NCBI GenBank assembly: GCA_050084515.1 | Contig: CM114271.1 | Location: forward strand, 25,234,001-25,298,000 | From: Blasia pusilla | Lineage: Eukaryota | Direction of reading: 5' to 3' | DNA length: 64,000 nt | Shown: positions 30,190 through 62,965 of the stretch, piece after piece | Numbering within the stretch: the first letter of the stretch is position 1 | How the letters are laid out: every line of letters starts with the position of its first letter | The notes under the pieces: model-generated | The model's database searches: none | Seen by the model: the letters and a program-made list of their open reading frames with translations, nothing else | What the model was told of the DNA's origin: nothing | Made by a program: the position numbers and the translations under genes

Positions 30190-34448
<4,259 letters not shown>

Positions 34449-39000: not shown

Positions 39001-40608
39001 TGAGATCTTTTGTCCTTCTCCTAGATCCAGTAGGTAGCGTTTTCGAACTTGATTGACGAATTGATTACTTCACTGTTGACAAGTAGACTTTCAACTTTCT
39101 GCTTACCAGCGAAACCAATGACATATGACAATCTTGACTCAGGATATCTTGTGGAATTCTGGAATGGTTTTGGTGATCAGGTCTCTGAAGAGAGGATTGC
39201 AAGCGTTAGAGATATGCTTGAACAGCTGCTTAGGGATGAATGTGTTGTGATCTGCTCACGCATGATGCCACGCTGTCTCTTCAAAGTACCAGCAGTTGGT
39301 GTTAAGGCATGGAAGACACAAGGAAGACTGGACGATGCCAAGCTACTTGTACCTCTTGAAGCATTACAAGGAACAGTTGTTCTGTGTGTCTCTGGTATAG
39401 GCTGTCCAGAGTCCCTCTCCTTGGTTTGTGAACGGGTATGTGTTCATCTGTAAAACTCATCACTTGAGGTCCTTTCCCAACAGAGCCTTATCGTGTCATG
39501 AGTTTTAGCTGTGACTCATTTCATGTTGAGATGTTCATATCCCTAGTAAGTGTTTCAATCAGCTGGGGTCTTTTCTTTTACAAAATCTTGATTATCTACC
39601 TTGATCATTAGAAGACCCTGACATATGATTAGCGAAAGGTTATTGACTATGGTTATATTTCAGCTTGGCTCCTACTATGTTGAACGAATGGACTATCTTG
39701 ATCACCACAAGTTCCAAAGAAAGGTAATTTTCTCTTTCAATGCTCTTGCAGACAGTGAAATTGTGGTTTCTTGTCTATCATCTGTTGTGGAGATTGGAGT
39801 GGTCAAGTTACATGTTTTGTGGCTTGTTCCAGGATTTACAAGATATCCAGCTGAAGTACGTACAACTTCAGGAGAAGTTCAAAGATAAGACTGTTGTGGT
39901 TGTCCTCACAGAAAAGGTATAAATGATCTTCCCTTGCTGTAACCTGAGAAAGAAATCCTATAAGAGAGCCTGTGGTCATGGAGTGTTGTATATGGAATAG
40001 GCCGTTCATAGTTGCACTCAAACAAAGAGAATGCAGATAATGGCATCAAGAATTCTGTGAATACGCTCTGCATATAATCATGTACTAGTGCAAAACCCAT
40101 GCTCTGCACGGAGTGAAAATTCGACTCCATTTAGTAGTCACAAGTACCTGCTCTAAAAAGGTTTTTTGTTGTCTGTTTTGTTTTGGTTGTGAAAGTAGTT
40201 TTTTGCTGCCCAACTGACATGTGTGAGCCTAGGGGCCATTGACAAAGAAAGAATCTGTACTTGTTAATAGTATCGATTTACGCTTGAACCTTAACAAAGC
40301 GAACAAAGATGAGGGCATAGTTGGGTGGATGCTATATGAAAGGATGTTTATGTTCCAACTTGTGATGATACTGATTGTATTAGTTGTGGATTGGCTTCTC
40401 TCAGGATTACATCAGAGATGTATCAATCTGGAGACAAGTGAAAGGTGCAGAATTGCTTATTCTTCATTCTTCGCTTGGACTTATGTCGACGGGGAAATCC
40501 TTGGAAGTGTTCAAAGGGATGCTTGCTGGTGTAGCTAGCAGTTCTCCGCATGAGTACACTCAGCTAGGTAGGTTCTTTTGGCATCAAGTACTCATCTTCT
40601 ACTCTTGA
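36081..40608 (+). CDS. LPXK: Tetraacyldisaccharide 4'-kinase (lipid A 4'-kinase), 8 exons
   Basis: Exons at about 36081-36262, 38031-38153 (VPVVSVGNITWGGNGKTPMV P-loop, LILTRG), 38360-38608 (GYAGGDE, VGPDR, VVILDDGMQ), 38786-38935 (RDLEIV..PLGPLRE), 39181-39435 (VSGIGCP), 39664-39723 (DHH), 39833-39916 (VLTEK) and 40405-40608 (DY...stop). Confidence 0.92.
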
Positions 40609-40749: not shown

Positions 40750-41517
40750 TGTCGTACGCATACACATCGGTACACAACATACATTGTTGTCACTGAATAT
40801 ACGCATAAATATACACGATCTCATACGAACTCATAAAATATACACAACGAGACGAGAAGTACCAAAATATCTCTAATAAATCAATGAAATCTTTCCATCG
40901 TAACATCAAGGTCTCACATCAAGCTCTCCATGGTGTGCATTTTTTATTATGTCATACCAAACCGAGTCTCCTAATGAGAGGTTTGGGTTAGATACACCAG
41001 GCAAGGAAGACCATAGTTCTCCGTCTCATGAGAAGAGGTTCAACAAAAAGAGAAAGAGCTTTTTAAACTTTCTCTCTTGGAGATATATCCCCTTCATTCT
41101 CCCAAACTCTCTTCTCGGTAACCTATGCTTGAAGGTCACCTCCTTGGCTCTAGAGTTGCTGTAATGGATCAAGGGTCATTTTCGAATTGGAAAGTCAATC
41201 ACCAAATACGATAATTTACCCTAAATAGTAAGTTTCTCAATATGACTCCAAGTGGGCCGAAACGAAAGAGAAACATGCTCTCGCAGTTTACCTGTGGCCC
41301 CAACAGGTCATCCTCAACCTTTTAAGGCTGTCCTTCAATATCTCAGAAGACACTCTACTAAGTATCATCGATCTATTCTAAACGACGGATAATTGTCGCG
41401 CGTATATACATTGCTATAAAATATACATCGTTGTTATCGAACATACACACAAACATGTACGATCCCATGCTAACTCATGAAATTCACATGACGAGACGAG
41501 AAGTACCAAAATATCTA
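40750..41517. repeat. LTR-like segment (TGTCG...~GTGACA, ~640 bp) followed by a ~125-bp partial second copy; candidate 3' LTR of the DNMT-bearing element
   Basis: 40750-40873 directly repeats at 41394-41516. 41000-41391 is a diverged direct repeat of 57080-57474, which ends GACGTGACA. A purine run AGGGGG lies on the minus strand at ~41522-41528. Confidence 0.55.
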
Positions 41518-41698
41518 ATCGCCCCCTAGTTGGTGGGTAGGTCCCTATAACTCGAGATAGCCATCTATCCCTACCTACCATGACATACATCTCTCGAACG
41601 CTAAGTTCAAAAAGGCCAGATGCTCATGCGGCTCCATCGTTAGTCACCTTCTTGTTATCCATGTCACATATACAAGTCAGAATCTAGAACTATCTATT

Positions 41699-41835
41699 CT
41701 ATTTACATCTGAGAGACATCCATCGTCCTCGAGGAACTCTAGTGAGAGGTACTGCTATATGCCATTCTCTCGAACATCCATCATAGATTAGCATCGTGAC
41801 TGCACCACGCGCGAAACCACACAATATACATCGCA
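41699..41835 (-). pseudogene. Degenerate PHD finger at the integrase C-terminus
   Basis: CILCGFARGAVTMLIYDGCSREWHI-AVPLTRVPRGRWMSLRCK fits the PHD pattern CxxC..(L)CDxC...H..(C)..PL..VP.G.W.C..C. Two Cys are substituted and the Cys after the His is deleted. Confidence 0.75.
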
Positions 41836-44800
41836 AGCCTTCAAGACCTATTGCTAAGCTTGGATCAATTGTACCATCAATGTTAGGAAGGTGATATGGC
41901 GCATATTTACGCACATGGTCCTTCCAAACCATACCATCGCGTCCCTCCAATAAGAGAACACCAGATGGCAAAACCTCACGCACTCTCAAGATAGTGCCTA
42001 CCTAGTGATTTCCAATGCCTACACATGAAATTAATGAAGTAGGTTTTATCAGATCCAAGAAAACCTTGTAGTATTAGTAGGCATGAGGTAAGGTCTCTAA
42101 TCTTACAAATGAGTTCCTATTGTAAAACTTCAAAACGCTTATGTATGGTCTATCATGTTTATGAATTGGTAGTGTTTAAGCAAGGGCTTGGCCACACTCT
42201 TTCTTGTGTAGTAGGTAAAGTAGATCATCTTGGATGCGTGGCTTGAGATTTTCTTATGTTTAGGAGAGAATCTCTACACTATGTATTTTGCTCCTTAAGT
42301 GTTGTGCAACATGGTTCTTGATTAATTTTTCTACCAAATCCAGATTAGAGTTAATATTGGGTAGCATGCAGAGTCACTATCGTGCGTATACACATCACTA
42401 CACAACATAGTCTCCCTGATGAAACCTACGGATAGTCAGTCGATAACCACCTCCATGAATAGTCGCATATCTAAACGTATCCCAATGCTGTGCAATCGCC
42501 AAGTTCTCAAACACCATGGGCATCACTCTCGGAAATAACTCAACCCTCTGAGAAGATGCTTGCATCCATACATCAGGGTTATTAAGTTTTAACACCTCAC
42601 CAACACCTCGACGAATGGTCGTACGTAAATTTGGCTTTTGTCCATAAAGGAGCAAGTACGGTGAGAAAGACGCTAAGAATGCATGCTTGGTGAATCTGTA
42701 TCCCATCGCCAACCACGGCAACTAGAGGTCCCAATCTCCTAGGTAACCTCTCTGCAAGCCAGACTTGCGCAATCCTCTAATCACCGTCTGCACAATCCTC
42801 TGTGCTAGTCTATCCACCTCAGGATGATCTCGCGAAGTGGTGTGGTGGTCGATCAACGCTTGATCATACAAGGCTTGAAACTCCCTGTGAAACTCTGTAT
42901 CATGGTCTGTCAACACCTCCACTGGTGTGACGTAATGACTCAACACTCGATCTAGGAAGGCATACGCTACTCCCTCACTCGCTTTGTTAGGCAACGCAAC
43001 CAACTCTATCCACTTTGAGAAGTGCTCGACCATCACCAACACATAACAACTATGGCGCTACGGCAAAGGTAAAGGTCCTGCAAAATTCAAACTCCATCTA
43101 TAACCTAAACCCATGATCGGAAGTGGATGCAAATGTGGAGTCGAAGCATTGAATGATGCCCCGACCCCATCACAAACCATGCACATGGCAACAAACTGCT
43201 GAACGTCAGTCTGCATGCCTCGCCACCAACACTATATTTGGACCAAGCTGTACATCCGCTTCACTCCGAAATGATCCAACTCCTCGTGGGCATGACGCAC
43301 CTGTGTGTCCCCTCCTACCGTAACTGTCTGGCTCGTTGTAGGATTCGATCGCGCTCTCTAGCGCTATCGGAGTAACACCAATTTCGCCAATTTTGGTGAA
43401 TTAAAACATTGTTGGGTTTCCTAAACCCTTCATGATTCTGATTTCCTTGAAGCTGTGCTTCAAGATAAAATTAGGACTTAAGTTTATTTTATCTGGATCA
43501 CAATCTTGGAAATAACATGTCCACTCATCTTTTTTTTTTTGCAATTGAGTCTCTTATTCCACTAAGGATTAATTTAGGAAGATAAAATTTTCTTGATGTT
43601 TATTTCAGTGTTTTTCTCAATATCTCTAGCGTGCGATGGCTTAAGATTGATTAACTTACACTCAACTTCGGAAATTGGGCCAAATTTATTTCTAAAGACG
43701 TTATTGTAGTCAGACATTCAAATATTGTCTCAAATGTACTTGCTTTAACTGACTGAAAAAAAGTTTCATTCTTGATTTGTAGGAAAAATATTGCGAGCTG
43801 GGCAATCGTCCCTTGGAAAATTGTAGATAATGAAATCCTCGCGAGCATGGGGGTCATTAATTAGACCTTTTGCGATGAACATATGGACGTATGATAGTCA
43901 GAGTATGGAATTATATGATGTCGTCGTGACATGCCGTGCTTGGTCACCTATATGTGGGAAAGTAAAGAACAAGTTTTCCTTCACCTCAACGACATTCAAA
44001 TGCAAACTGAAGATTATGCTTTTAGGTTTAGAATTTGCGAAAATGGAACTTAAGTTCTGATTATGTCTAATGTCTTTTTCCTCCAATCTTGGTGTCCTAA
44101 GGCCTTGATCTCTCTAAGGAGTAATATTGTGTGGTTAGTTATAAGAACTAAAGTGCTCATATGGGTGAAGTCCTCGTGATCGTGAGAACGCAAAATTTTT
44201 GGATTCTGAAACTAAATTATTCTACAACCTATATACAATGGTAGAGGTAGAATCTTGAATGAGCCTCCATGGATAGGTTAGAGAAAGGAAAAACTTTGCA
44301 AAGGTTCATTAGTTGGGTCGAGAATAAAGAATAGAAACATGAACTGTTTAAGCAAGGAATAAGTACAAGTACAATCCGTTTGTTGGGAGGCCACTTGTTT
44401 GGTGGGTCTCTTTCTTCAATGTGGTTGTAGGAAGTAGGAACGAGTAATCAAAACTTAAGTCCCAAATCTTCCTCTCTCCTAAGAAACATAGGAAAAAACA
44501 AACCAGTTCAATAACAAGTGGAACATGTCTGCAGAAGGACTTGTTCCGGCTATGGATCAGCTCCATTCCGTGGAAGGATCTCTTCCCGTTACGACACAAC
44601 TCATACCGATGGAACCAGATTTTAGGAGCGAGTTGAAAGGCATTCAAAACTCTAGTTCCAAATGAGCTCCCATCCACCCCCTATCCTCCAAGTATTTGGA
44701 ACGTCCTCTTGGCTGTAGCCCTATAGTTGCCCACAAAAGAAGTTGGTTAAATTGTGGAGGTAATCCTACCACTAGAATTGGATCTCAAGAGCCAATTCAA

Positions 44801-45111
44801 GGGCATTTGGAACTATAGTTCCAATGGGATGTTATATTCCAACGATAGAACGCTTTGTGCCATCACAACTGGACCTCAAGATCCAATTCAAAAGCATTGA
44901 AGAATTAGTATGGTTCCCCGCGCGGCTGTTAGGGACATAATCAAAACTTAGGTTCCGATTCTCCCATATTTTTCCAATAAATGTTAGAGATCCCTTCCAC
45001 TGCTAAGTCACGTGAACTTCACAACTGAACTTATGGTTGTACTAAGTGCTAATTGTGAGAGTTAACTTCCATTCCCCCAAGATAACCGACTAGCTTAATA
45101 TGTAGTATAGA

Positions 45112-47661
45112 TGTCACGACCCTCATGACCAAACGAGTGCCAAGCGGAACATCGGAACATTAGCGGGCTCACGCTAAGATGGTTTGCGCGTTGGAGTAGT
45201 CTCAAAGAGGAGACAAGAGACGAGACGCGAGCGAGGCGTCGCGTTTCAGATGTTGTGGTCGTGACCGAGAAACCTGGACCAAACGCGGAATGAGACTTGA
45301 AAGAAGTCGAGTCTAGGAAGTGGGTTGCCAAAGGAGGAATCCGGATTTGGAATGCCACTAGCGTTTGAGAGTTTCCGACTGTATTTATGGCCATAACTTT
45401 TAGCGCCAAGATGCGTTTGGATTAAATAAGGGTGCGTTAGAAAGCTTATGGAAAGCCGGTTCAAACACATTAAGGATCTTTGCAAACGCTTTAGCAGCGG
45501 CTGAGAAACAATCCGGAAACGACTATAAGTAAAGCCGGGTTGAGGGCCACAATGAAGGGTCCGACCCTCCTTTTCCAAAGGGGGGGGGGGGGAGGTGGTT
45601 ATTGGAGAACCCCAAAAGTACTACTAAAGGGGGAAGGTCTCCGAGAGTGCTTGGAACCCGAACCCCACTTTGGGCGCCGTAGGGCGGCTCAAGGGCATGG
45701 AACAGAACGCGAGTTTGGGGGTTGGGTTGGAAAACCTTCACCAAGTCTAATGAGGCGATTTTAGACATCCCTCTTGGATTTCACCCCGCGACTCAATTAA
45801 TTGGGTCTAGGTTTGGAACTCACACGAGGAACGTTGAACAGTTGGGATCGCTAGGCGCGCGGGTGCTGTTTCACATCCCTGGACTAACATGGAAGTCTGT
45901 TCCAAGTCTTGAAGGACTTGCCATGTTTTGGAAACTAGGAACTAAGGAAGGTTGAGCTTGATGAGACGCCGAGTTGAGAACTCGGTGGGTTGGAACGCTG
46001 GTTGGCCCAGACCCGACTAACGAGAGTGCGTGTTTGGATGCAGATCGGCGATGAGATCGTGACCCACTGAACGTACGCTTCCGCAACACTAAAGATTGAC
46101 GTTCAAGGAGAGTAGGGGCGTGACAAGTGGTATCAGGGCAAATCCTTGGTGAACGAGAACTTGGGGTCATGGGATCAACCGGACGCTTGGGAAAACTCAA
46201 GGTAGCGGCTAGACTCAGACGCTCGAGGAGGGACGCAAGAAACGAGGAGGAGATTTGAGTGAGTTGGCTTGAAAATGGCGATCGAGGGAGAACAACCCAA
46301 GAAGCGCCGAATCAAGCGACGTGAACCAAGAGAGGAACCAATGCCGGACCGTGAAGCTATGGAGGAGACGGAGACTCCCGAAGAGCTGAACGCCAGTCGT
46401 GAGGACGTCCCACAGGCGAATCCTTCCGCGGGGCCATTGGGCCCAAACTCAGGGGAACCTCCAATGTCTGGCTCGACCGAGTCGAGCCAGACATTGGACT
46501 TGTTGAAGCTGTTGGTGGAGCAGATGTCCCAGCAAAGCAAGCGGATTGCAAAGTTAGAGGCCACTCGAACTCTGGGTGCGGGCAAAAAGCTCTGTAAGAC
46601 AAACCTGCCCACGCCATTCACTGGGGTGGGGCGCTCGCGGAAAGTGAAGGATTTCCTTACGGAATCGAATCGCATTTCGAGGCGCAGAGGGGCGAAAGCG
46701 GGACAAGGTGACAGTAGTCGTTACTTTCTTGAAGGATCATGCGCTACAATGGTGGACAGCTCAACGAGAGGAATATCTGGGCGGCAAGTCACCTCTGAGT
46801 TGGGAGGAGTTCGAGGTGTTGATTGGGGATCGATTCACTCCGGAGGACCAAGGGTTGCGCGACACCGTGGAATGCGTGCGGATGCGGCAGAGTGGTTCCT
46901 TAAGCGCGTATGTGAGGGAGTTTAGTGCGAAACTGACTTCTATTCCAAAGATGGATGAGCACGCCGAAGAAGGCTATCTTCATTAGTGGACTCAAGCCGA
47001 GCGCTGAAAAGGCCCTTTACCGAATGCCGGCGTTGCGGATACTGCGCGGATCTTCTGAAGCGGGCGGAGAGGATTGGGGACGATGAGGTCCAAACCCAAA
47101 ACCCTTTGAGCCAAAAGGTTTTTCGAAGAAGTCGAAAAATAAGGAGGCGTTCAAAAGAGTTCGGAGTGGGGACCAAAGACGATCCAGAGAATTATCGCCC
47201 GCAGAAGCAAAACGAGTGGAACTTCATGCGGCGTTTAAAGGAGGACAAAGACTCGAAGTCAGGGAACGGCAAGGTCATATGCTACAACTGTGGCGAACCG
47301 GGGCACCTGGCGAAAGTGTGTTCGAAACCGAAGGTTAGTAATGGGAGTATGATTGCATTTGCTGCTAAGCATCTGTTGGCGGGCGATCTCGAGACGTCCC
47401 TTGAGGTCACCAAGAGGACGCACAATTTGGTGTACCTAAGATCCAAGATTGCTGATCGCGATGTGTTGTTGCTCGTGGATACAGGTGCTTCGCACTCCTT
47501 CCTAAGCCCGAGAATTGTGAACAAACTGGGGTTGTCTACCTCTAAGGCGGATGAGCCCATTCGAGTAGGATTTGCAGGAGGCAAGTCTCATCGGACTTCT
47601 GATTTGGTCTTGGGTTTGACCGTAGGATGCGGGGTATTCGAGTTGAAGGAGAATTTTACTA
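45112..47661 (+). mobile_element. Nested, 3'-truncated Ty3/gypsy element (5' LTR, gag, protease), related to the 20058 element
   Basis: LTR TGTCACGAC...GGCGTGACA at 45112-46125, PBS TGGTATCAGGGC at 46128-46139, gag (FLKDHALQWW, intact knuckle CYNCGEPGHLAKVC) and protease LLVDTGASHSF. It breaks off at ~47661, head-to-head with the RNase H region of the minus-strand element. Confidence 0.9.
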
Positions 47662-49699
47662 TGCTCGCGACGTTGCTAGTACACACGTACACCAAGATTA
47701 CTCCATCATCGTGAATATCTCGGCCACTTGTCCTCTCTTCACCGGCCTCTAGATCTAAGGACTCTCCATTAGACCTCGCCATCGAATACTCAGCAATCTG
47801 GCTCTCCATAGCCAACAAGCCCAAATAGGCTAACGCGTGCCATCGTGGCACGAACTCCTCATCACTCTCACCATGCCAACGAGTTCTAATTGCATCTCGC
47901 TGACTCAGGCAAGGGTTACGGCTCAAACCATTGACATCCTGGTCGAGCATCCTAGGCCTATGTACCACATGGAAGTCATACTCCTGCAACAAAAAAGCCC
48001 ACCTTGCAAGCTTCCCTTTAAGCTTGTCGGACTCCATCAACCACATAAGTAGTTGATAATCAATAATAATGGTAAAGGGATTGCCAAATAAACAACACCT
48101 CAAATGCTTGACAATCCATACTACAACCAAGCACTCACCCTCATACGAGCTATACTTCGCCTCTGCAGCGTTGTTCGAGCGACTAGCGTAAGCCCCCACA
48201 AACTCTCTACCCTCATCGTCATGTTGGGTGAGCACGGATCCAAGCCCCAACATGCTCCAATCGATATACAACTGGAAAGGATGCCCCCTGATCGGTCTAC
48301 TCAAAATGGGTACGGACGTCAACTTGTCCTTGGGCAGCTGAAATGATCTCTCCTACTCATCCCCTAGTGCCACTCGTAATCCACCTTGGTCAACAAGATT
48401 AGCGGCTTCGAAATCGAATTGAAACCCTTGACGTATCGTCGATAGAATTTCGCCAATCCCATGAATGCACAAACCCAACTCATATCTGTAAGGCGTGGAA
48501 TCCGTGAAATAGCCTCTACCTTCCTTTGTTGCACATCAAGGTCACCTAGGTATATGATATGACCCTGGTACTCAATCTGCTTGTAGAAGAACTTGCACTT
48601 GCTTGGATATAGCTCCAACCTATGTAACTGCAATCGTCTAAACATCTCTTTTAGATGTCGCTCATGCTCCTCAACTGTGGCGCTAAAGACTACGATGTCA
48701 TCAATATACAACCTAGCAAAATCCAGACCATCCAAGATCCTATCCATGAACCTTTGAAATTGAGCCGAGGCGTTCTTTAACCCAAATGGTAAGAATTGCC
48801 ACTGGTATAAGAAATCCTTCCCATGAGGATCTATGCCCCAAAATGCCATCTTCTGCCTGTCCTCCAATCTGATAGGCAGCTGATGTTATCTAGCTCGAAG
48901 ATCTAACAAAGTGAAGACCTTTGCATGCCCAATAACATCAAAGATCTCCTCAAGGGTGGGCATGGCATACCTATCGCACTTCGTCTGCCGATTGATAGGT
49001 CGGTAATCTCCACACATCCGCCTATCTAGCCAATTACCATGAACATCCTTCTTGGCGGGCATGAGTGGCAGATGCATACGCTCCATGCAACATCTCCACT
49101 AGTCCTGGTCCAACCAAGTCTTGGCTCCAACTCTGAATCAGAGCCCTCTCCATATCATTGTATCTATGGGGCGTCGAAAGATTTTCGTGTCACTCGAAAA
49201 CTAAATGCGCATCTCTAGATCCTTCAGCCTACCCAAATCATGCATGCTTAATGCAAAAAAACGCCTATAACTCATAAGGAACTAATGTATCATGCGCCGC
49301 TCTCCTCCTGTCAACTTATCTGGCTCCCAAGTATCCATCGTGACTACAGTAGGACTCTCTGGCGCGGGTATCGGTGGTTGCTATGGTGCAACCCGACTTG
49401 AATAGTAGAACTAGGTTGCTCTCCTGCAGCCAAATGCAAAACTTTGATCTCCTCCACGTGCAGTACCCGAGACCACACTCGATGCTATGACTATCATCTC
49501 CGGGCGTACCTACAAAACATCCCAAGAAGCCCAAGGGTGTCTCTCCCGATCACCCATGGTATGTCGATCTCCTTGGGTCTTGCCCTTAGCCACTGCCTCA
49601 ACCGTCTCGGTAGGCAGGGGGCTCACCAACCCAAGAGCTGTAATATGTCGCAACCTCAACCGACGCTGCTCAGCTATTCCTAAGCTGAAAATCCATGTC

Positions 49700-50625
49700 A
49701 AGGAGTTCAGGTCCATCGCCTCACCCAAGATATGATGTCGTGATGCCCTCTGATAGTGATGGTACTACCGTCACTCCTGTGGGGAATCCCATTGCTCGCT
49801 CTCGCTCATCGGCGTTGGGCTGCACCAACTGCTGTACCTAGTCAACCCAAATCAAGCCAGGTCCGGTCTCCTTGAATGCATAGGAAGCGGAAAAACTCAA
49901 AATATGGGAAAAGTTGCTTGTGGCATGCCAACCCAGTTGAACAAAGTCAACAAAGGTCAATCATCGTACCGTACTACCTGTGACTGATGACGTGGATCCA
50001 AAATAGAATCTACCAAAAAAGGGAGGGGCGCTCCACTCTCGCATATGCCCTACCTAAAACCTAATTTGGCACCAAGTTGGTCCACCAAAGACGCGGACGA
50101 TGTGCTCGTGAACCTACACTCGCCGTATCCAACAAAACTGCTAGGCCGATCCATGCGCGTACTTGATGTGCACTCATCACCACTAGGGACCTCGAATCGG
50201 CACATTTTCCAGAATGTAGCTGGAGAACGGGATTGATGGTCGTGCAAGTGTCGCAAGATCTGCATCATCTCCCAAAATAACATGGATCGAGTATAAAGTA
50301 ATCCGCTACCTCGTCCAACACTTGATTTGCCTTGACACGGCCAACCAGCAATGGCCAAATCTATGGTCCTTACCCGCTCCACGTTATGAGCCCCCAACAA
50401 TAAAACGTCCCTCGGTAGGGAATTCTGGTGACCCTCGATGGTGGACGCAGACAACAAGTCGGGAAATCCGAGGCGTAAATGCGTCACATGGTGAAGTGAA
50501 GCGCGCCTTGCAACATCATCAATCTCAACGTATAGGTACTATTGCACACGCATTCCAACCTGCAAAATAGCAGCTAAGCCAGTGCTGATCCCTCCAAAGA
50601 GATCCAACACGCGAATACCCTCATG
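49700..50625 (-). pseudogene. Retrotransposon-encoded cytosine-5 DNA methyltransferase domain, DNMT3-like (disrupted)
   Basis: Motif I IRVLDLFGGIST (50617-50581), II YLYVEID, IV IDLAIAGWPCQG (PCQ ~50340-50332), VI YILENV (ENV 50209-50201, after a frameshift), VIII LLDTASVGSRAHRPRLWWTNL (~50135-50073), IX ERERAMGFP (~49810-49782) and X RHHILGEAMDL (~49745-49712). There is one in-frame stop at 50539-50541 plus further stops and frameshifts. Confidence 0.9.
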
Positions 50626-52594
50626 TGGAATGCACCACATAATCGGGGTGGTGTCTAAAGGGATCATAGTAGCACTCTTGGCTACCTCAAGTTCCTTTGA
50701 CCCGTCACGCTCTGGTGCAAATGCCTCACTCCAAGCGGTCTGCATGTGCTCATCAGATAAACGTCGGAGCTCCTCACTCGAGCCCCACAACGGCACCTCT
50801 CCTCCACGGAATGATGCGACTACCATAACACTCATCTCCCTAGAAGTGTCAGGCGCGGGGATGTCCTCTGCATGGACATGCCCCTCAATCAAATCAGAAG
50901 GCCTCGTGATGGCGCTGCTAAATGCTGCGAATGTCGCCATCTCTCGTAGCTATCGCTCAATCACTCCACCCGTGAATCGAACGGGTAATGAGCTAAGTCA
51001 CCCATCACCGGACTGTCATCTTGGTCTGTAGGACGCTGACTCCTCCCAATAATCCATGGAAAACTCCATCGAGAACAACATTTGCTCCACCAACCACGAT
51101 GTCGTAGGACTATGTATCGGTCACTATCGCCTTGGCTTGCACAATGGACTTATCTGTAGGATGTCTTGGGCGAATCCTCATCACGACCGCCTATCGGGTG
51201 ATAAACTATGTGGTACTCGGTGCATCCAAGGATGTTTGTATCATGAATGGACAATGCTCCACATCGGCCCTCGTCAGACCCAAACCCGAGAATGCCGCCT
51301 TTCCCAACATCAGGGGTTGCGCTCATGAATCTAACAAGACTTGTTGCGGAAAAAAAATCTACCTCTTGGACTTACCAACTGGAAGATCTCTTCCGGATTA
51401 TCTAGCAACACAACACCTGGAGCAACCGTGGCACGCTCTATCGCGGGTCTAGCGGGCATCTCCGCCATCCTTGCTGTCGCAACCTGCCATGAATCTGACA
51501 TGGACGGCCCGAGCATCATCTCCAAGGGCAGTTCCATCACTTCATGTGCAAATCACCTCTGAACGTGATGCAGGAACACCATCTCCACGCTCACATAGCG
51601 TAGCCGACAGCTGGAAAATATCGGCAAGCTTACCTCCCATCGTCATAACATCGGAAGCAAAAGATAGCGGAGCACGGTAGACCATCGTGGCCGCCCGCAA
51701 CATTGTACTCGACACATGCTCCTCCCGAGCATCAACAATAGAAATCTTCACACTCGCTTCTCCCATCGCTCTCCGTGCCTGCACACCAACACCATAAACT
51801 CTCTGGGAACTTTCATCAGGATCCATCGATGGGTTCCTCATCGCCTCGGACAACGTGAAAGATTGAGGAAGCCACGTCTGTTTCGTGGCTTCTCTTCTTT
51901 GTGGATCCAACCTTGCGACAGTTCCAAGTGGAACAACTACGGCTGCCTCCAACTAGAAAGTCGACATTTCCAGTGAGGATCCTCCATATCTTTGGCTGCT
52001 CCATAAGACGTCGATGCCATGGCTCCGGCATCGGGTAACCTCAATGCCATAGCAACAATCTGCTGCTGTATCTAAGCAACCATCCGAGCGTCACGCTCGA
52101 GGTCTCCCTCGACGTGTCTAGGTGGTGGGAATCTACCTCCTCCACGGGAAACTCCATCACCCCGTCAGGAAAATCTAGCTCCTCGTTCCCCAACAGGACC
52201 ACCACGTACACGACCTCTAAGCCCACCCGGACTTGCTCTGGTGACTCTCTTTGGCCCTCGGTCCGAACGTAACTTAGGGTATAGGTTGAAACACTTGGTG
52301 CGTATGTGACCGTACCTTTGAGAATAGTCACATTGATAACCCTATCATCCCCTGAGTGACGCTAATCAACCGGCGCAAGCGAGTGTAGGGCTTACGCAAA
52401 CTCTCACCCGGGCGCCTATGGAAGTCGTTGATGCTCTGCAACTTCTCAATCCGTATCCCCTGGTATCTCGTCCTCAACTCTGCAAAGAACTCAACCATGG
52501 GGTTGAACCTAGGACGAACCCGACTGGACGATGCAAGTTCGAGTAATCCCTCCTAAAACATCATTGGTGGAAGAGGAATTAGCCTCTCATTCGT

Positions 52595-55500
52595 CATGGA
52601 GTATTCCTCAACATCAATCACAGGCGAGAAGCTAGATAAGCAGAATTACAATGTCTGGAAGTTTCGCATGAAACAATTTCTCATGGGTCAAGAACTATGG
52701 TAGCTTGTCACAAGTGATGAGGCCAAGCCACAAGGTGATTCAACAGACTTGAATGTTCACGCTTGGAACAAACACGCGAGGCAAGTAATCCACTTCATTT
52801 CAATAACGATCAGTTCGCCAATGATAAGTCACATTCAAGATGTTGATATTATGAAGGAGACTTGGGATGCATTGGAAAAGCTGTTTTAGATATCTACAAA
52901 GGCTAGAAAGCTTCAAGTGAAACAAAAATTGAACGAAGTGAGGAAAGGATCATAGAGCATCAATGATTATATTTTGAGTATCAGACATATTGTTGATTAG
53001 TTGAATAGCATTGGAGAGACAATAGAAGATGATGATGTTATTTTGTTCACTCTTCAAGGCCTTCTAAAGGATTATAAGTCCTTTGAGACCTCTATCTCTG
53101 TGAGAGAGAAGTATCCAACCTTTCAAGAGTTAGTCCCATTGTTAATCAGTGAAGAGATGCGCCTAGTAGGCTGCGATAGCTCGTCTAGTCTACAAAAGAG
53201 TGTGCTATTTGCAGATTATGGATCAAACAGAGGCACGGGTCGTGGCAGAAGCTTCCGTGGTCGTGGTGGATATCAAGCATATGGAGGAAAAGACACTCAA
53301 TATAACGTCACTCAATCAACTACGAACCAATATGTGACACAATCACAAAGTGGTGATGGTGGAAACCGTTGGGGTCGAGGTCAACAACAGAGGGTCCCTT
53401 GATCTTGCAATCACTGTGGGATAAAGGGTCATTATGAAAATTTTTGCTTCAAGAAGAAGATAGATATGAGAATAAGAGCCTTACTGCAAAAAAACTATTT
53501 GGAGCAACAATACCAAGGGCAATATCAAGAACAACAAGATTCACAAATAGAGCATCTCTTGGTCATGACTCATCATATGGGAGCCATGGTCAAGAAAGAC
53601 TCGACAGCATATTGGTACATTGATTCTCGTGCATCAAATCACATGACCTCACAAGCTAAATGGTTCTTTAGTTTGGAGTCGGTGAAAGATCTTGCAATCG
53701 TGCTCACAGGAGATGACACTCAACATCATATCACGTATACCGGTAAAGTTCCAATAGCATCAGATGGTCTTGTGCTCTTGGAAATGTTCTCTATGTTCCT
53801 ACCATTGCAAGAAACTTGATCTCTGTAGAACACATAGTAGAACACGATTATCAAGTGAAGTTTAACGTAGATGGTTGTTTATTGAAATAATGGATGACCA
53901 GACTACGATAGCCAAATGAACTAGATCTGGCAGAATGTTCAAATTAGATGTTTCTATGCTAGAGATTCAAACAACAATGTATGATCAAACCGGCCAACAA
54001 ATCACAGATCTAAATGTTTGGCATAAAAGAATTGGACATATGAATCTTCAAAGATTATAGAGTCTTTCATCATCTAATATAGTAATAGGACTCCCTAAAT
54101 TAGAAAATATTGCTCCGTTAGATGTATGTCCTGTTTGCCAATTTGGAAAACAAGCTAGATTTCTTTTTCCAAAGCAAGATAGAAGAGTATCTAGGATATT
54201 GGAATTGATCCACAGTGATGTGTGGACAACATCACAACATAGCCTTTGTGGTTGCCAATATTTTGTTTCCTTTATTGATGACTTCTCTAGGTATATATGG
54301 GTATATTTTTTGAAAGCCAAGTTAGAGGTATTCTCAGTGTTCCAAACATTCAGAGTTCTAGTAGAAAAGCAGATTGGATAACACATTCTGAAATTGCATT
54401 GTGATGGAGGAGGAGAGTATCTTTCAACAGAGTTTGATGACTATTTATGTCACAATGGCATCCAACGTCAAGTGACTTGCCGTTACACTCCACTACAAAA
54501 TGGAGTGGTTGAGAGGAAGAATCGACATATTGCTGAAGCGGCACGAGCTATGCTGAATGAGAAGAAAATGCCTAAGGTGTATTGGGTAGAGGGTGTAGCA
54601 TGTGGAGTCTTCTTAATCAACCAAACTCTAACAACAAGAGTTCATGATAAGACTCCATTCGAAGTCTTCACAGGAAGTAAACTTGATTTTTCCTTCTTGA
54701 AAGTATTTGGTTCTATTTATTTTGCTCATGTTCCTTCTGAAAGACATCACAAATTAGACCCCAAATCTGAAAGATGTATATTCATAGGCTACGCTGATGG
54801 AAGTAAGGGATATAAGTGCTACATTCCATCCTCTAGGCAGCTTATTATTAGTCGCGATGTTGTCTTTGATGAGCTAAAGTCATGGTATGCTCAATCTGAG
54901 CCTATTCCACTTCTAAACTCGTCTATTGAAGGGGAGAATATGATTGTAAATCAACAGACATTGCCTTCAACTTCCCCAAGTACTAGTGCAACATTAGGAG
55001 AGGTCCTATATTCATCAGTTAAATGTGTGAGTCCATGGACGGGAAGAGTACGTATTCAGTCTATTGACACTAGTCAAAGCTCGAGTCAGGTGTCAAAGGC
55101 ATCTACCTTTGAACAACAACTTCGTCGATCAAGTAGAGTTACACATCCAGTTCATAAATTCATAAATGAAGGTTTCCTTGCGACGCATCATGCATATATG
55201 ATGACTACCCTTCAAGAACAAGAGCCGAGTTTTTTTTGAAGAAGCTGCAAGTAAAGTCAAATGGATTGAAGCTATGGAGGAAGAGCTTGCTACATTAAGA
55301 CATCAACAAACATGGGAGCAGGTTCATATACCTTCTAGTAAGGAAGCTATTGGTTGCAAATGGGTTTATAGAATCAAGTGCAATCAAGATGATATAATTA
55401 ATAGATACAAAGCAAGATTGGTGGCTAAGGGCTATGCACAACAATATGGTATCGATTATAAGGAAAAATTTACCCCTATTGCAAAGATGGCGACTACGAG

Positions 55501-57060
55501 AACAGTGGTTGCAGTTGTAGTAAGTAAGAAGTGGAGATTATATCACATGGACGTCAAGAATGCCTTCTTGAATGGAGATCTATAGGAGGAGGTATATATG
55601 ACTCAACCACCTGGATACACGCATCCCAAGTTTCCATTTTGCGTATGCAGGTTAGAGAAAGCTCTATACGGGCTCAAACAAACTCCAAAAGCTTGGTATG
55701 GCAAGATTACATACCTCCTACAAGAGTTGGGTTTAAGGATATGTGATTCTAACTCCTCGTCATATGTCTTGAGAGGACAAGATCATATGGTTCTCATTGT
55801 GTTATATGTTGACAATTTCCTGATTACTGGGAGTACTAAAGAAATTGTACAACAAGTCAAGCTGAAGTTACAAGCAGAATTTGATATGAAGGACATAGGA
55901 GAACTCAAGCACTTCCTTGATATTGAGTTTATCAAGGTTGGAGAGAGTATGTGGTGACTACAACGACAATATGCTCTTAATATGCTTTCAAAATATGGTA
56001 TAACGGCTTGTAAGCCAATCTCTACACCGTTGGACCAGAGTGTGAAGCTAAGAATGGATGAATGAGAGTTGCTTGTAGATTCTAATATGTACAGGTGTAT
56101 TGTTGGAATTTTGATCTATCTAACTATAACCAGACTAGATTTGAGCCATGCCGTTGGCCTAGTGAGCCAGTTTATGCAAGCACCTCGAAAACCTCACCTT
56201 GATGCTATGAGGAGGAATATGCGGTATGTGAAATTCTCTATTCAATTCTCGCTTCAATTTCAACCTTTTTTGAGTTTTCAATTACATGGATTTACAGATG
56301 CTGATTGGTCAAGAAACGTGTCTGATCGATACTCCACATCTGGTTATTCATTTACTTTCGAAAGCCCAACTTATAGTTGGGCTTCAAAGAAGCAACCTAC
56401 AATTGCTTTATCTTCAATAGAGGCTGAGTATAGAGGAGCAACCAATGCATCATGTGAGGCGGTGTGGCTTCATTGATTACTTGTTGAGATTGGTGTTAGT
56501 AACTTAGGACCTAGTGTAATATATTCAGACAATATTAGTCGCAACAAGCTTGCTAATAACCTTGTGTTTCATGCTCGTACAAAGCATGTTGAGGTGCACT
56601 ATCATTTTATCAGAAGGAAGTTCTTGCAGGAGAAATTAATCTTGTGTATATAGATGGAGATAACCAAATTGCTAACATCTTTACAAAGGCATTATCTAGA
56701 GATAAGTTTGAGATGTTTAGAAATGATTTAGGCATTAGAGCAATCGATATGAGCTTAAGGGGGAATATTGAAGATTGAGTTACAATCAAGCTCATGAGAG
56801 ACCTGAACTGCTACATTTCGTACTCATACGAAGTGGGGAAGCTTAATCTTAGTTAGTCAGTTAAGCGCGATTATCATAACTAGGGTTAGTTAATCACTGC
56901 TAGTCTAACTCGAGACTATGGTTAAGATTAGGGTTAGGGTTTCTTGTACATACCCTATATAATTGAGAAGGGGACCAGCTTCCACTCATTCTCTCATTGC
57001 AAATTTCATTCTCCATGGTGGTATGTGAGTGTGAGAGCCGTTTGCCACCAGTTATGCCTC
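52595..57060 (+). mobile_element. Ty1/copia LTR retrotransposon, decayed, 5' LTR not found
   Basis: Copia domain order: gag (KLDKQNYNVWKFRMK, knuckle CNHCGIKGHYENFC), protease WYIDSRASNHMT, WHKRIGH, integrase (LIHSDVW, CDGGGEY, QNGVVERKNRHI), RT ([33 protein letters not shown]) and RNase H (FTDADW, ALSSIEAEY, RTKHVEVHYHF). PPT AAGGGGGAA at ~56757-56765. The 3' LTR starts at ~56766 and its end is uncertain. Confidence 0.93.
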
Positions 57061-57079
57061 TTTAGAAGTTTTCCACAAA

Positions 57080-57474
57080 GGCAAGGACGACCAAAGCTCT
57101 GCCGCCTCATGCCAAGACGTTCAACAAAGAGAGAATGAGCTCTCAAGCTCTCTCTCTTGGAGGTATACCCCCTTCCCTCTCCCAAGCTCTCTCCTCGGTA
57201 ACCAATGCTCGTAGGTGAACTCCTTGGCTCTTGACCTGTTGTAGGAGGTCAAGGTCCACTTCCCAAAGTGGAAAGTCACCTATACCAAAATGGCAACTTA
57301 CCCAAAATATTATTTTTCTCAGTATGGCTCCAAATGAGCCGAAACGAAGGGGAAACATGCTCTCGTAGGTTACCCGTGGCTTGAGCAGGTCATCCTCGAC
57401 TTCATGAGGTTGTCCTTCAGTGTCCCCGAAGGCGCTCTACTAGATCTCGCCGATCTATCCTAAAAGACGTGACA
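57080..57474. repeat. LTR remnant homologous to 41000-41391; candidate 5' LTR of the DNMT-bearing element
   Basis: Diverged direct repeat (gcaagga.gacca..., ttcaacaaa..gaga, ctcggtaacc, gccgaaacgaa..g.aaacatgctctcg, caggtcatcctc). It ends in GACGTGACA. Confidence 0.7.
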
Positions 57475-60164: not shown

Positions 60165-62075
60165 CCGACTGGGAGTACAAAATCAGTACCTGGTCTTTCG
60201 TCGATCCAGCCACGCTCCGTGCTCCCGCCAATACGTGTGCAACGCGATTGGATGTTCCTCAAAAGGACTTCCTGCGAGAATGCCTGGGGTTTAGGGAAAC
60301 ATCTGCTTGTGCTTGTTGTTTCCAAAATTCGAAGAGGTACCAATGGAGATTCATGCTGTCAACATGGAGATTCATCCTTTCGACTGATGACATTCCTATA
60401 GCACGTCAAGGATATCACTAGTGAATATCCTAGTCGCCTATCTGCAAGAACTTTGAAACCTTAGATAAAGATGTGGAGAGTGAAAAGGCAGTATCACGAC
60501 TTCAAACTAAAGTAAACAGGAACGACTTAATCATTGCAGTTCAACCTGGAAAAATGCCGACCTTTCTCTTCTGAATGTTCATCCTGAATCAGCAGAGCTG
60601 AAGAACTACCTGAGGGGGATTAAATTAACGTCAGGACAGGATCAGGATGGGAACCAAAATCAAAGCAGAGTCCTACACAGTGTGCGAGGAGGGGAATGAT
60701 ACTTCCAGTCACTATCTGGTCCTTTGTGAGAATAATCTTTTAATGCGGGAAGAGTAACAGCCTATTCTGAGATTGTTAAGCTGTTATCACCAAAGCTGTT
60801 TGTCATGTTCAGTAACCTAGTTTCACTGCCCAAATCGACTGCACTAGTAAGTAATGCATTTTTGTGTCCCAATCAGGTAATGTAGAAAGTGTTGTTAAGA
60901 GTTTCTTGTCTGAAACCTGGAAGCTCTCCCAACAGTCTCAATGGTAATTACCCGAACATATAACATGCGAGAGGATCTCTCCTCTCTTTTGGTACTTTCT
61001 TCACTTCTTCCACCTGCACCAATCCCACTGACACTATCTGGAGATGCTATTCACCGAGTGTGGTCTCCAGTTCAAGCCAAAGAACCACTCCACATCATAC
61101 TGACTGTTGCCCCTTAGACGCCGATGCTTGGAGAAATCGCTTCATCCCTACTTCTTTGATCTCCGTCTCTCAGGTTTTTGTGGATAATAATGAGTTTGCT
61201 CATTCATCCTCTCTTCCAAAGGCATTTTTTCCTTCATTTGATGAGGTCGTGCTTGTGATGGAATCGAAATATTGTCCTAGGCTATCTAAACCTCTCATCC
61301 AGGTCATTCAGTTGAAATCCAAGTGTAACCTCAGTCTCAGGGGTTTTGAAACCAAGGATTTTTCAGCGGACCGAAGCTTAGAAACAACACTGCTGGTTGT
61401 GTGACCTGTTGTGGCGGATGTCGCAGGTGCCATTTTTGAAGAAGGTTGTCGTGAACTGCGGTGTTGGAGAAGCGGCCCAAAATGCCAAGTCCTTGGAATC
61501 AACTATTAGGGATTTGGGTCTAATTACAGGTCAAAGACCTGTGACCACGAGAGCTAGGAAGGCTATTGCTGGATTCAAGCTTCGTGAAGGTGTTCCGGTA
61601 GGCGTCAGCCTCACTTTGCGTGGAGAGGTACGCCTGGCTGACCGATTCATGCATCCATTCTTTCATTCTGGAAACTTCTTCGCATGTGCATGTCGTAATC
61701 TCATTGCATCTCTGCTGTCGTTATCTCTCTGTGTAGGTCATGTACTCCTTCATGGACAGGTTGATGAACCTGGCTCTTCCCCGGACACGAGATTTCCAGG
61801 GAGTCAATCCCTACAGCTTCGATGGTAAGGGTAATTACACTCTAGGAATGTCAGAACAGAGTGTTTTCCCGGAGATTCGATTCGAAAACATAGACAGGGA
61901 GCGTGGCATGGACGTGTGCATTATGACGTCGGCCAAGAATGATGTGGAGGGTCAAAAGCTTTTGTCACTGCTCGGAATGCCATTCAAGGAAAGCGTCGGA
62001 GGCAGATCGGCATCTTCTGTCAAAAAGAGCGTTAAGTCGCAGTATAAATCAGGCAAAGGAGGCAGGAGAAGATAG
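59788..62075 (+). CDS. RPL5: 50S ribosomal protein L5 (uL5c), plastid-targeted, 3 exons
   Basis: Exons 59788-60105 (Ala-rich transit peptide, [20 protein letters not shown]), 61427-61627 ([36 protein letters not shown]) and 61737-62075 ([29 protein letters not shown]). Confidence 0.96.
60119..60160. repeat. (CT)~21 microsatellite in RPL5 intron 1
   Basis: Read directly from the sequence. Confidence 0.97.
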
Positions 62076-62846
62076 AACCTCCTATGCTTAGAATTTGCCT
62101 TTGGCTATTGCCTCACTACCGTGGAGCCAAGATACTCGAGGTCCTGACGGTTCTGTACGTCTCCTTACGATTTAACACAACTTCTCGTTCCCGCATTGTG
62201 GAGGTGGACAACGAGAAACATCTGTCTCTGCATCGGTACTGGCGCATGTGATTTTTTTGGGATCATGGTAGAGTTTTCAAGTCTCGGGCGCATGTGCAGG
62301 GACATAACTGAAATTTGTGAAAGCAGGCACGAAGTTCTACTGATTTGTCACCTAACTGATAAAGTCAGGAAAGACTTCTCGCGCAGGAGTGTTAATGAAG
62401 AATGTTTCATTCCATACGCCCCAGTAGTCTACTTCATTTTCATGCTTGCTTTCTTTGCTCTCATCTCAAGAACATTCATTTTCGGGTGCGGCTTACATGG
62501 AAACCCTATGCACGGGATCAGGTTAATAGGTCTGGATTCTGCATCTTTTGTATGTTAAATTTCCAATCTGTGTACTACCGTACTCTAGACATAATCTTCT
62601 GGAGTTCAATTCGCCTCCCAGTCTTGTATATATGAGCATTTTGGTCGACTGAAGGATGATCAACATTCCTATTACTCTCTAACCTTCCATACAGGGAGAA
62701 ACCCTCCAAAAGTCCCTGCACAGTTGTACGAATCGGGTGGGAAGCTATCGGTATTCTATCCCAGATTCTAAATCTTGGTAGAATGAGGCGTGAAATAGTG
62801 TAATCACAATCTTCACATGATGTAGGAATGTGTTTCTACGCCGCCG

Positions 62847-62965
62847 GGACCTTGACTCTGAGCGCATAAATAGTTTGTGTCTGGACGTTCGGATTATTTA
62901 ATCCCAGGACCTTGACTCTGATCGTAGAAGTAGCTTGTGTCTGGACGTTCGGATTATTTAATCCC
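62847..62965. repeat. 60-bp tandem duplication (2 copies); a 25-bp doublet also lies at ~63578-63628
   Basis: ggaccttgactctga.cg...aa.tag.ttgtgtctggacgttcggattatttaatccc x2; tacggattgtgc.catcatctccag x2. Confidence 0.9.

Follow-up and report, generated by a model that had tools for sequence, protein, structure and literature searches.

Remnants of a PHD finger and a DNMT3-like methyltransferase from one Ty3/Gypsy family in Blasia pusilla

Ty3/Gypsy retrotransposons that carry a DNA methyltransferase (DNMT) and others that carry a PHD finger have both been described in the green lineage. KnitGypsy-Dnmt3 of Klebsormidium nitens is a published DNMT-bearing Gypsy element, and the legend to Fig. 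4c of that paper gives its layout as A-coding-B-A-B, with repeats as in DIRS elements and domains as in Gypsy (PMC5890265). A preprint uses the name 'Gypsy-DNMT3' for such elements of streptophytes (bioRxiv 10.64898/2026.05.21.726589). Two Gypsy elements with a PHD finger have been reported from Chlamydomonas: Gypsy-7a_cRei (PMC9940879) and REM1 (Perez-Alegre et al. 2005, as cited in PMC9940879 and other papers). In chromoviruses, according to PMC6673714 and the same preprint, chromodomains act in integration targeting. Here we analyze a stretch of 64,000 nucleotides (nt) from Blasia pusilla (assembly GCA_050084515.1, contig CM114271.1, positions 25,234,001 to 25,298,000 of the forward strand; hereafter the window), in which minus-strand remnants of one Ty3/Gypsy family include both a DNMT and, at the C-terminus of the integrase, a PHD finger. 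With good though not full confidence we read them as an old, dead copy from a green-lineage group of elements bearing DNMT3-like enzymes, with a PHD-ended integrase, the order gag, protease, DNMT, reverse transcriptase (RT), RNase H (RH), integrase (INT) and PHD finger, and A-coding-B-A-B repeats.

The integrase tail

The end of the integrase lies in an open reading frame (ORF) that runs from stop to stop between 41699 and 42001 on the minus strand and encodes 100 amino acids (aa). A preliminary description of the window, made from its letters, had started this frame at 41989, a position within it, and had seen there a degenerate PHD finger. The peptide strings on which that sighting was based, one beginning with CILC, MLIYDGCSREWH and PLTRVPRGRWMSLRC, are all present in the translation. 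The codon of the first cysteine of the remnant occupies 41830-41828, that of the last cysteine 41707-41705, and the stop codon follows at 41701-41699.

Homology decides the identity of this tail. A phmmer search with the 100 aa against 1.84 billion representative sequences returned 539 matches at E ≤ 0.001, 125 of them at E ≤ 1e-10, with a best value of 1.1e-25. All nine relatives that were scanned contain the PHD family PF00628, with scores of 35.1-41.6 bits (cut-off 24), precisely at the site to which the window tail aligns; the same family is found in the relatives P0194, P0198, P0201 and P0210 (protein relatives are given by such numbers throughout). Scored by itself against a profile that combines 92 intact relatives, the 43-residue PHD part reached 40.9 bits; the highest score among 1000 shuffled versions of it was 11.2 bits, and 959 of the shuffles scored at all. 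The family itself is well endowed with complete fingers. An intact C4HC3 pattern stands at the aligned place in 92 among the 150 best tail matches. Of 120 proteins related to the integrase region of K. nitens, 108 have the pattern intact and 111 have PF00628, the latter counted by hand from precomputed Pfam lists.

The window copy has fared less well than its relatives. By alignment and family profile it keeps five of the eight zinc ligands (Cys1, Cys2, Cys4, His5 and Cys8); Cys3 has become tyrosine, Cys6 falls in a three-residue gap and Cys7 has become serine. The C4HC3 pattern with canonical spacing is absent from this copy, which is a decayed remnant and a non-functional member of its family. 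A Pfam scan of the integrase tail at E ≤ 1 returned no family, and this silence of PF00628 on the window copy weighs against the assignment; since Pfam has no match there, the PHD call on the window tail is made through homology. The PF00628 search that the preliminary description had proposed came out negative for the window ORF and positive for the relatives. Taken as a matter of sequence homology, the tail is confirmed as a true but decayed PHD finger.

The remnant follows the SH3-like segment of the integrase, which is the place of the chromodomain in chromoviruses. Pfam reported no chromodomain family, either for the window tail or for the relatives that were scanned. Chlorophyte relatives of the tail are numerous, and the named relatives of the PHD-bearing integrase belong to Scenedesmus, Haematococcus, Tetrabaena, Pleodorina and Volvox. 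The statement, in the preliminary description, that PHD-bearing Ty3/Gypsy integrases occur in green algae is borne out by these proteins and by the published Gypsy-7a_cRei (PMC9940879).

A single family and probably a single copy

Along the minus strand, in falling order of coordinates, the remnants follow one another as gag, protease, DNMT, RT, RNase H, a foreign block, integrase, a skipped stretch and the PHD tail (Table 1). The Ty3/Gypsy domain set of protease, RT, RNase H and DDE integrase is all on one strand. In the gag remnant, residues 224-275 of P0176 and P0178 match 52513-52370 by tblastn (E ~5e-5); a zinc-knuckle-like string was sighted there by eye. The protease of P0176, which maps to the next region, is placed by Pfam at its residues 768-857. 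PF00145 matches 50050-50538 with 26 bits (cut-off 22); the DNMT is decayed, with an in-frame stop at the 50538/50539 ORF boundary, and its catalytic PCQ motif is still legible. A single high-scoring segment pair (HSP) with P0201, at 50025-48340, covers the C-terminus of the DNMT through the RT. The rve core of the integrase (42722-43057) scored 40.3 bits (cut-off 32.6) and the Integrase_H2C2 piece (43058-43231) 22.4 bits, under its cut-off of 25.5; residues 1917-2273 of P0212 map to 43414-42404. Stops in four aligned coding pieces number 1, 3, 1 and 6, and because every aligned piece holds stops the window copy is dead.

The preliminary description had assigned the DNMT and the PHD finger to one element from strand and domain order across nested insertions, and the relatives uphold that assignment. 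In separate trees, the RT-RH and INT regions of the window both fall within the clade {P0198, P0005, P0210}, with support of 100/98 in the RT-RH tree and a Shimodaira-Hasegawa-like approximate likelihood ratio test (SH-aLRT) value of 94 in the INT tree, the latter a quick tree only. P0198 is the nearest relative in both, with 54% identity in RT-RH and 60% in INT. P0201 is an uninterrupted protein of 2358 aa with the order PR-DNMT-RT-RH-INT-PHD (PR, protease), in which the DNMT occupies residues 953-1137 and the PHD finger 2300-2344. P0210, from the same clade as the window, is likewise a single DNMT-RT-RH-INT-PHD protein, and both lie collinear on the window as DNMT, RT, RH, INT and PHD. Homology probes place P0204 and P0205 in the PR-DNMT-RT-RH-INT-PHD order as well. 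By these sequence comparisons, one family accounts for both the DNMT-RT-RH fragment and the INT-PHD fragment. Neither of the two outcomes that the preliminary description had named as fatal to it, intact members lacking C4HC3 and fragments from different families, was observed.

They are probably also one copy. The two fragments are complementary at the break: homology stops within the linker behind RNase H, where trustworthy matches reach to near 47810, and resumes ahead of the H2C2 finger. A local DNA alignment of the two fragment ends scored 27 against a shuffled mean of 27.7; because this is the shuffled level, the RH-side and INT-side fragments do not overlap. An overlap of the two, and with it two copies, had been read from the frames by eye, and finds no support in this alignment or in protein alignments, where the two sides meet in the variable linker. 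A long HSP with P0184 that reached 47609 was not reproduced in a later protein alignment.

A set of split direct repeats encloses both fragments. Read on the minus strand it has the form A-coding-B-A-B, with B1, A2 and B2 placed after the stop codon and no copy of B beside A1. A1 and A2 differ by 52 transitions and 26 transversions, B1 and B2 by 23 transitions and 4 transversions, a divergence of ~20% in each pair with transitions in excess. Between A1 and the gag remnant sits a copia-type element, with Pol_BBD on 53403-53819 and SH3_retrovirus on 54382-55239. The copia-type element starts straight at its gag and directly adjoins what is left of the DNMT element's gag. An inverted copy of the first ~75 nt of the B repeat (80-82% identical) lies far from the element, at 16775-16848, and may be a trace of another copy.

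The alternative is that the INT-PHD and DNMT-RT-RH fragments are two insertions of the same family that later insertions and deletions of transposons brought side by side. Several features of the locus would suit it. Part of the intervening 4.3-kb block, 45113-47714 on the plus strand, is a long terminal repeat (LTR)-gag-protease fragment from another Ty3 family; it matches 20059-22595 with 68% identity over 2596 columns and has zf-CCHC and an aspartyl protease on 46959-47714. This fragment leaves 43415-45112 of the block uncovered and is truncated within its protease at ~47.7 kb, so that the block is not a clean nested element; it is for this reason that two same-family copies could have been brought together. 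The linker that holds the break is too variable for alignment, and the region is crowded with nested and truncated elements. The assignment of the A and B repeats to the DNMT element and not to the neighboring copia-type element is a probable one, drawn from the layout of the locus. Both the state of the block and this origin of the repeat assignment count against our reading of the locus. Yet two chance neighbors would have to lie on the same strand and in the correct order, with complementary ends, no overlap and no conserved part missing; they would have to come from the same small clade and share the same nearest relative; and a single A...B-A-B set would have to enclose both. We consider two insertions improbable and retain the single copy.

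The family is represented far beyond this copy. One whole-genome shotgun (WGS) run (~1% sampled), two RNA-seq runs and one contig set were compared with 41600-43400 at 80% likeness (runs X9, X12 and X13). WGS depth was ~2500-4400 over the integrase and tail, which suggests thousands of related copies in the host. It fell to ~0-1.4 in the bins of 42027-42331 and to ~21 in the bin 42332-42392, and 271 WGS reads, as well as RNA reads, joined 41997 directly to 42405. Because the bins at 42027-42392 are essentially uncovered, the stretch 41998-42403 is an insertion or replacement specific to the window copy. That copy is an old member of the family, since 24868 of the 30107 mapped reads are less than 90% like it. 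Most family reads also carry extra bases at its three-residue PHD gap (752 loose ends, with insertions at 41750-41752), so the gap and the loss of the sixth ligand are peculiar to the window copy or its near kin.

RNA depth over the same region was ~100-270, and nearly all first mates lay on the plus strand. This bias is consistent with sense, minus-strand transcription if the library is of the standard stranded kind, an assumption that counts as a reservation. RNA reads at least 99% like the window numbered 2 of 1674 in one run and 0 of 1970 in the other; since there are almost none, the transcripts of the family derive from other copies.

Pairing of the two modules and its possible roles

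The pairing seen in the window is common among relatives. Sensitive probes found a DNMT in 81 of the 120 relatives, and 73 of these 81 have an intact PHD finger; five of the remaining eight stop too early to include one. Among the 150 best tail matches, all 16 DNMT-bearing proteins have an intact PHD finger. The co-occurrence in uninterrupted proteins that the preliminary description had called for is thereby found, in P0201 and P0210 and widely beyond them. A PHD finger without a detected DNMT is present in 35 of the 120 relatives, some of which may be second ORFs of two-ORF elements. P0178 (gag-PR-DNMT, 1451 aa) and P0198 (RT-RH-INT-PHD, 1039 aa) come from the same source and may be two ORFs of one element. 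P0183 and P0184 have the order gag-PR-DNMT-RT-RH-INT and keep the SH3-like segment, after which comes an unrelated tail end that has no PHD finger; judged by their sequences, the finger of this lineage is lost or replaced. The pairing of DNMT and PHD finger is frequent and not obligatory.

The DNMT occupies two places in the polyprotein. In type A it lies between protease and RT (the window, P0201, P0210, P0212, P0183, P0184 and P0186 of K. nitens). In type B it lies between RNase H and integrase (P0062, P0071, P0078, P0091, which is the 'pol' of Scenedesmus sp. PABB004, and 13 of 21 metagenome loci). The branch between the two types has support of 100/100 in the RT-RH tree and 97 in the INT tree, and this separation suggests that the domain either moved or was acquired twice. 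The 13 metagenome loci show RT-RH, DNMT and INT, and 7 of the 21 (L004, L005, L007, L008, L010, L014 and L015) have single ORFs of 2006-2041 aa. The window's domain order is absent from the 21 metagenome loci, which are all of type B or partial; with a PHD finger it is known from the proteins P0201, P0204, P0205 and P0210. Six type B polyproteins (P0078, P0111, P0124, P0187, P0190 and P0191) run ~300-400 residues past the PHD finger in an extension that looks conserved. In this extension Pfam at E ≤ 1 found no credible family, the one hit being a sub-threshold MIase in P0187 (20.3 bits, cut-off 26.7). The named hosts in which the pairing comes with catalytic-type DNMT motifs are Scenedesmus and Haematococcus. 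Proteins from Tetrabaena, Pleodorina and Volvox reticuliferus (P0195, P0274, P0287 and P0299) have a region that is DNMT-like by homology and does not match the patterns of catalytic motifs IV and VI; these regions may be inactive remnants.

Both modules have informative kin among solved structures. For P0174, a close relative, the DNMT has its nearest counterparts in DNMT3A, DNMT3B and DNMT3C (E 3e-9), in agreement with the 'Dnmt3' label that de Mendoza et al. 2018 gave to the K. nitens element (PMC5890265). The nearest counterparts of the intact P0002 finger are those of PHF12, CHD4 (PHD2), KDM5B and KDM5A (PHD1), WSTF, PHF21A (BHC80), DPF2/3, ATXR5, UHRF1 and AIRE. PMC3241642 lists BHC80, AIRE, CHD4, DPF3, DNMT3A and DNMT3L among the readers of unmodified H3K4, and KDM5B PHD1 binds H3K4me0 according to PMC4225485. 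PMC3241642 describes fingers of this kind as free of an aromatic cage, with acidic residues on the N-terminal side of Cys1 and a hydrophobic one just ahead of Cys3. We counted such features in 202 distinct intact fingers of the family. L, I, F, V or M directly precedes Cys3 in 198, and at least one acidic residue occurs within the eight residues preceding Cys1 in 146. Cage-type PHD fingers have a tryptophan two residues before the histidine; the family has glycine two residues ahead of it in 178 of the 202 fingers, and tryptophan never. From its nearest solved relatives and these few positions, we infer that the family finger resembles a reader of the unmodified H3 tail, and this derivation counts as a reservation on the reading.

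In intact members, the position of the finger behind the SH3-like domain, where chromoviruses have their chromodomain, makes a role in integration the most likely one: it would tether the integration complex to nucleosomes through the N-terminal tail of histone H3, and so bias where new copies land. The DNMT would be a separate module, probably freed by the protease. De novo CG methylation is reported for other retrotransposon DNMTs (PMC5890265), and by analogy with these enzymes of de Mendoza et al. 2018 the DNMT might methylate CG de novo, perhaps with the newly made DNA of the element as its target. Put together, and offered as a tentative proposal that we consider rather unlikely, the DNMT3-like domain and the integrase PHD finger might be a writer and reader pair kept across Chlorophyta and Streptophyta in two domain orders, in which the finger would steer the integrase (in type B perhaps a DNMT-INT-PHD product) to chromatin with unmethylated H3K4 and the new copy would be methylated by its own enzyme.

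A stronger version, in the spirit of the DNMT3 logic that the preliminary description had invoked, would couple the two modules directly: the finger would read unmethylated H3K4 and direct or license the methyltransferase of the element in the manner of the ADD domain of DNMT3, and integration and methylation would share one mark. The counts of intact fingers among DNMT-bearing relatives, both in the 120 and among the best tail matches, speak for it, as does the persistence of the pairing in two domain orders across the 100/100 branch. The kinship of the modules, with H3K4me0 readers as the nearest solved fingers and a DNMT3-like enzyme, fits the analogy. In type B the DNMT lies directly upstream of INT-PHD, and because the two abut in single ORFs, of about 2000 aa in the 7 metagenome loci, a DNMT-INT-PHD fusion product is conceivable. 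Against it, RT, RH and INT lie between DNMT and PHD in the window's subtype, and the two are more than 1000 residues apart in P0201; because of these intervening domains and the presence of a protease, they are probably on different mature proteins. The lineage of P0183 and P0184 keeps the DNMT with a tail that has no finger, PHD fingers occur without a detected DNMT, and the finger is described as a common accessory of other Chlamydomonas transposons (PMC8557442, PMC9940879). By analogy with DNMT3 such coupling might occur, more readily in type B, and the modules are separable; as an account of the family as a whole we find it unlikely.

Less probable again is that the finger serves something other than the choice of site, such as the recruitment of chromatin factors for the element's own transcription or the binding of a non-histone partner. 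A few PHD fingers do bind non-histone proteins, and their downstream effect is set by the host complex (PMC3241642); the Chlamydomonas papers, in the passages on such fingers, mention only a possible role in 'chromatin remodeling' (PMC8557442, PMC9940879); and the RNA reads of the family are strongly strand-biased. But the finger is fused to the integrase C-terminus at the very place where chromodomains act in targeting (PMC6673714 and the 2026 preprint), and its sequence features match those of histone H3 tail readers. Tethering of the integrase remains the reading that we prefer. That the cysteines and histidine of the tail resemble a PHD finger by chance, as the failure of PF00628 on the window copy and its five remaining ligands might suggest, is already refuted by the best tail match, by the gap between the score of the PHD part and those of its shuffles, and by the PF00628 matches of relatives at the aligned place.

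The surrounding locus and comparison with known systems

The element belongs to a cluster of transposons beside an intron-containing host gene for a CDC48-type AAA ATPase (Table 1). The plus-strand fragment at 45113-47714 that splits the DNMT element is of the same Ty3 family as the element at 20059-25679, which has a short internal region and of which an inverted LTR copy is also present. An ORF with a Ribosomal_L5 domain probably represents one exon of the gene for ribosomal protein L5. Guesses made by eye for the ORFs at 39034-39453, 8880-9371, 11534-11959, 56066-56476 and 52328-52552 were dropped, as Pfam found no family in any of the five.

Table 1 Features of the DNMT- and PHD-bearing element, in its own 5' to 3' order, followed by other features of the window
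Feature	Positions	Strand	Evidence
Split direct repeat A1, 5' terminal repeat	57079-57469	-	78% identical to A2 over 394 aligned columns, offset ~16.08 kb
Gag remnant, N-terminal part missing	52041-52552	-	ORFs and tblastn
Protease region	51089-51946	-	Matched by P0174 (residues 96-358) and P0176 (residues 753-853)
DNMT3-like C5 cytosine methyltransferase, decayed	49663-50664	-	PF00145; tblastn of P0062, P0071, P0091, P0174, P0201
Reverse transcriptase, contiguous with DNMT	48334-49329	-	RVT_1 77 bits; P0198 49.7% identical over 336 aa
RNase H and start of linker to integrase	47732-48460	-	RT_RNaseH 97 bits; P0198 49.6% identical over 244 aa
Foreign block between RNase H and integrase, ~4.3 kb, boundaries approximate	43415-47700	+	Repeat comparison and Pfam
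Integrase: H2C2 finger, DDE core, C-terminal part	42404-43414	-	Pfam; P0198 59.9% identical over 299 aa
Stretch skipped by reads of other family copies, ~400 bp	41998-42403		Read joint and depth
Integrase tail: SH3-like segment, then decayed PHD finger	41699-42064	-	Homology, alignment, family profile
Split direct repeat B1	41394-41516	-	78% identical to B2 over 123 nt
Split direct repeat A2	40999-41387	-	78% identical to A1
Split direct repeat B2, 3' end of element	40750-40872	-	Pairs with B1
Nested copia-type element, no detectable 5' LTR	52557-56800	+	ORFs and Pfam; 3' end estimated from ORFs
CDC48-type AAA ATPase gene, intron-containing	31269-34448	+	Pfam AAA 165.7 bits, CDC48_2
Element of another Ty3 family, short internal region	20059-25679	+	LTR-like repeats 20466-21086 and 25058-25679, 87%
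Inverted LTR copy of that Ty3 family	13486-14221	-	Repeat comparison
Tandem duplication, 60-nt unit	62844-62963		90% identity
Tandem duplication, 138-nt unit	2064-2340		88% identity
ORF with Ribosomal_L5 domain	61382-61828	+	Pfam 83.6 bits

Among described elements, the closest is that of K. nitens. As its published description has it, KnitGypsy-Dnmt3 shares with the window a Gypsy-type Pol with an internal Dnmt3-like DNMT and A-coding-B-A-B repeats. The K. nitens protein P0186 has the order PR-DNMT-RT-RH-INT and belongs in both trees to the same major group, with the DNMT upstream of RT. The window is 34-47% identical to P0186 and lies in a sister clade to P0186, P0194 and P0196; by this identity and this position, its element is probably not of the same family as KnitGypsy-Dnmt3. 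The finger is harder to follow on that side, which counts as a reservation: P0186 and P0196 of K. nitens end before the PHD place, and only P0194, 79% identical in the integrase, has one. The word 'PHD' does not occur in the main text of PMC5890265; Fig. 4c and the supplements of that paper lay outside this search and may show one.

The Chlamydomonas elements Gypsy-7a_cRei and REM1 are alike in having, in their published accounts, a Ty3/Gypsy polyprotein with an accessory PHD finger proposed to influence where insertions are placed. They differ in that those accounts report no DNMT, and the legend for Gypsy-7a_cRei puts the finger before the integrase, whereas in the window it comes after it. 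Chromoviruses, including the algal Chlamyvir, also carry a histone reader on the C-terminus of a Ty3/Gypsy integrase that is thought to steer integration (PMC6317226, PMC3350952), the reader being a chromodomain there and a PHD finger here. Chlamyvir was accordingly rejected as the family of the window element, since its members are described as carrying chromodomains (PMC6317226, PMC3350952).

The combination of a reader with a writer has a precedent too. EpiLTRs join histone reader and DNA methyltransferase domains in one LTR retrotransposon (bioRxiv 10.64898/2026.05.21.726589), so the reader-plus-writer 'epigenetic toolkit' on a retrotransposon is, as that preprint presents it, already in print. 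Their reader is a chromodomain, and their writers are an adenine methyltransferase and a DNMT4-related DNMT; the text of the preprint mentions no PHD finger. Animal DNMT3A and DNMT3L are comparable in that a PHD-type reader of unmodified H3K4 is encoded together with a DNMT3-type catalytic domain (PMC3241642). The element departs from them, in the window's subtype, by the RT, RNase H and integrase that lie between the two domains, and it has a plain PHD finger and not an ADD domain. In DNMT3 itself, reader and catalytic domain sit side by side on a single polypeptide, each regulating the other.

DNMT-bearing and PHD-bearing Gypsy elements are thus both published already, and the window element adds to a known kind. 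The pairing of a PHD finger and a C5 DNMT in one Gypsy Pol was not found in the literature searched, which did not cover the figures and supplements of PMC5890265. The present comparison goes slightly past the literature consulted. DNMT-bearing Gypsy elements extend beyond Klebsormidium, with a wide distribution in chlorophytes (Scenedesmus, Haematococcus and others) and in metagenomes. Their near-constant companion is an integrase PHD finger whose sequence would fit a reader of unmodified H3K4. The DNMT stands at two Pol positions in two well-separated clades, and one such family is very abundant in its host, with strand-biased RNA reads. If the two modules cooperate, these elements would offer a natural test case of a mobile element that both chooses its chromatin and writes DNA methylation, and would bear on why transposons carry an enzyme that usually silences them.

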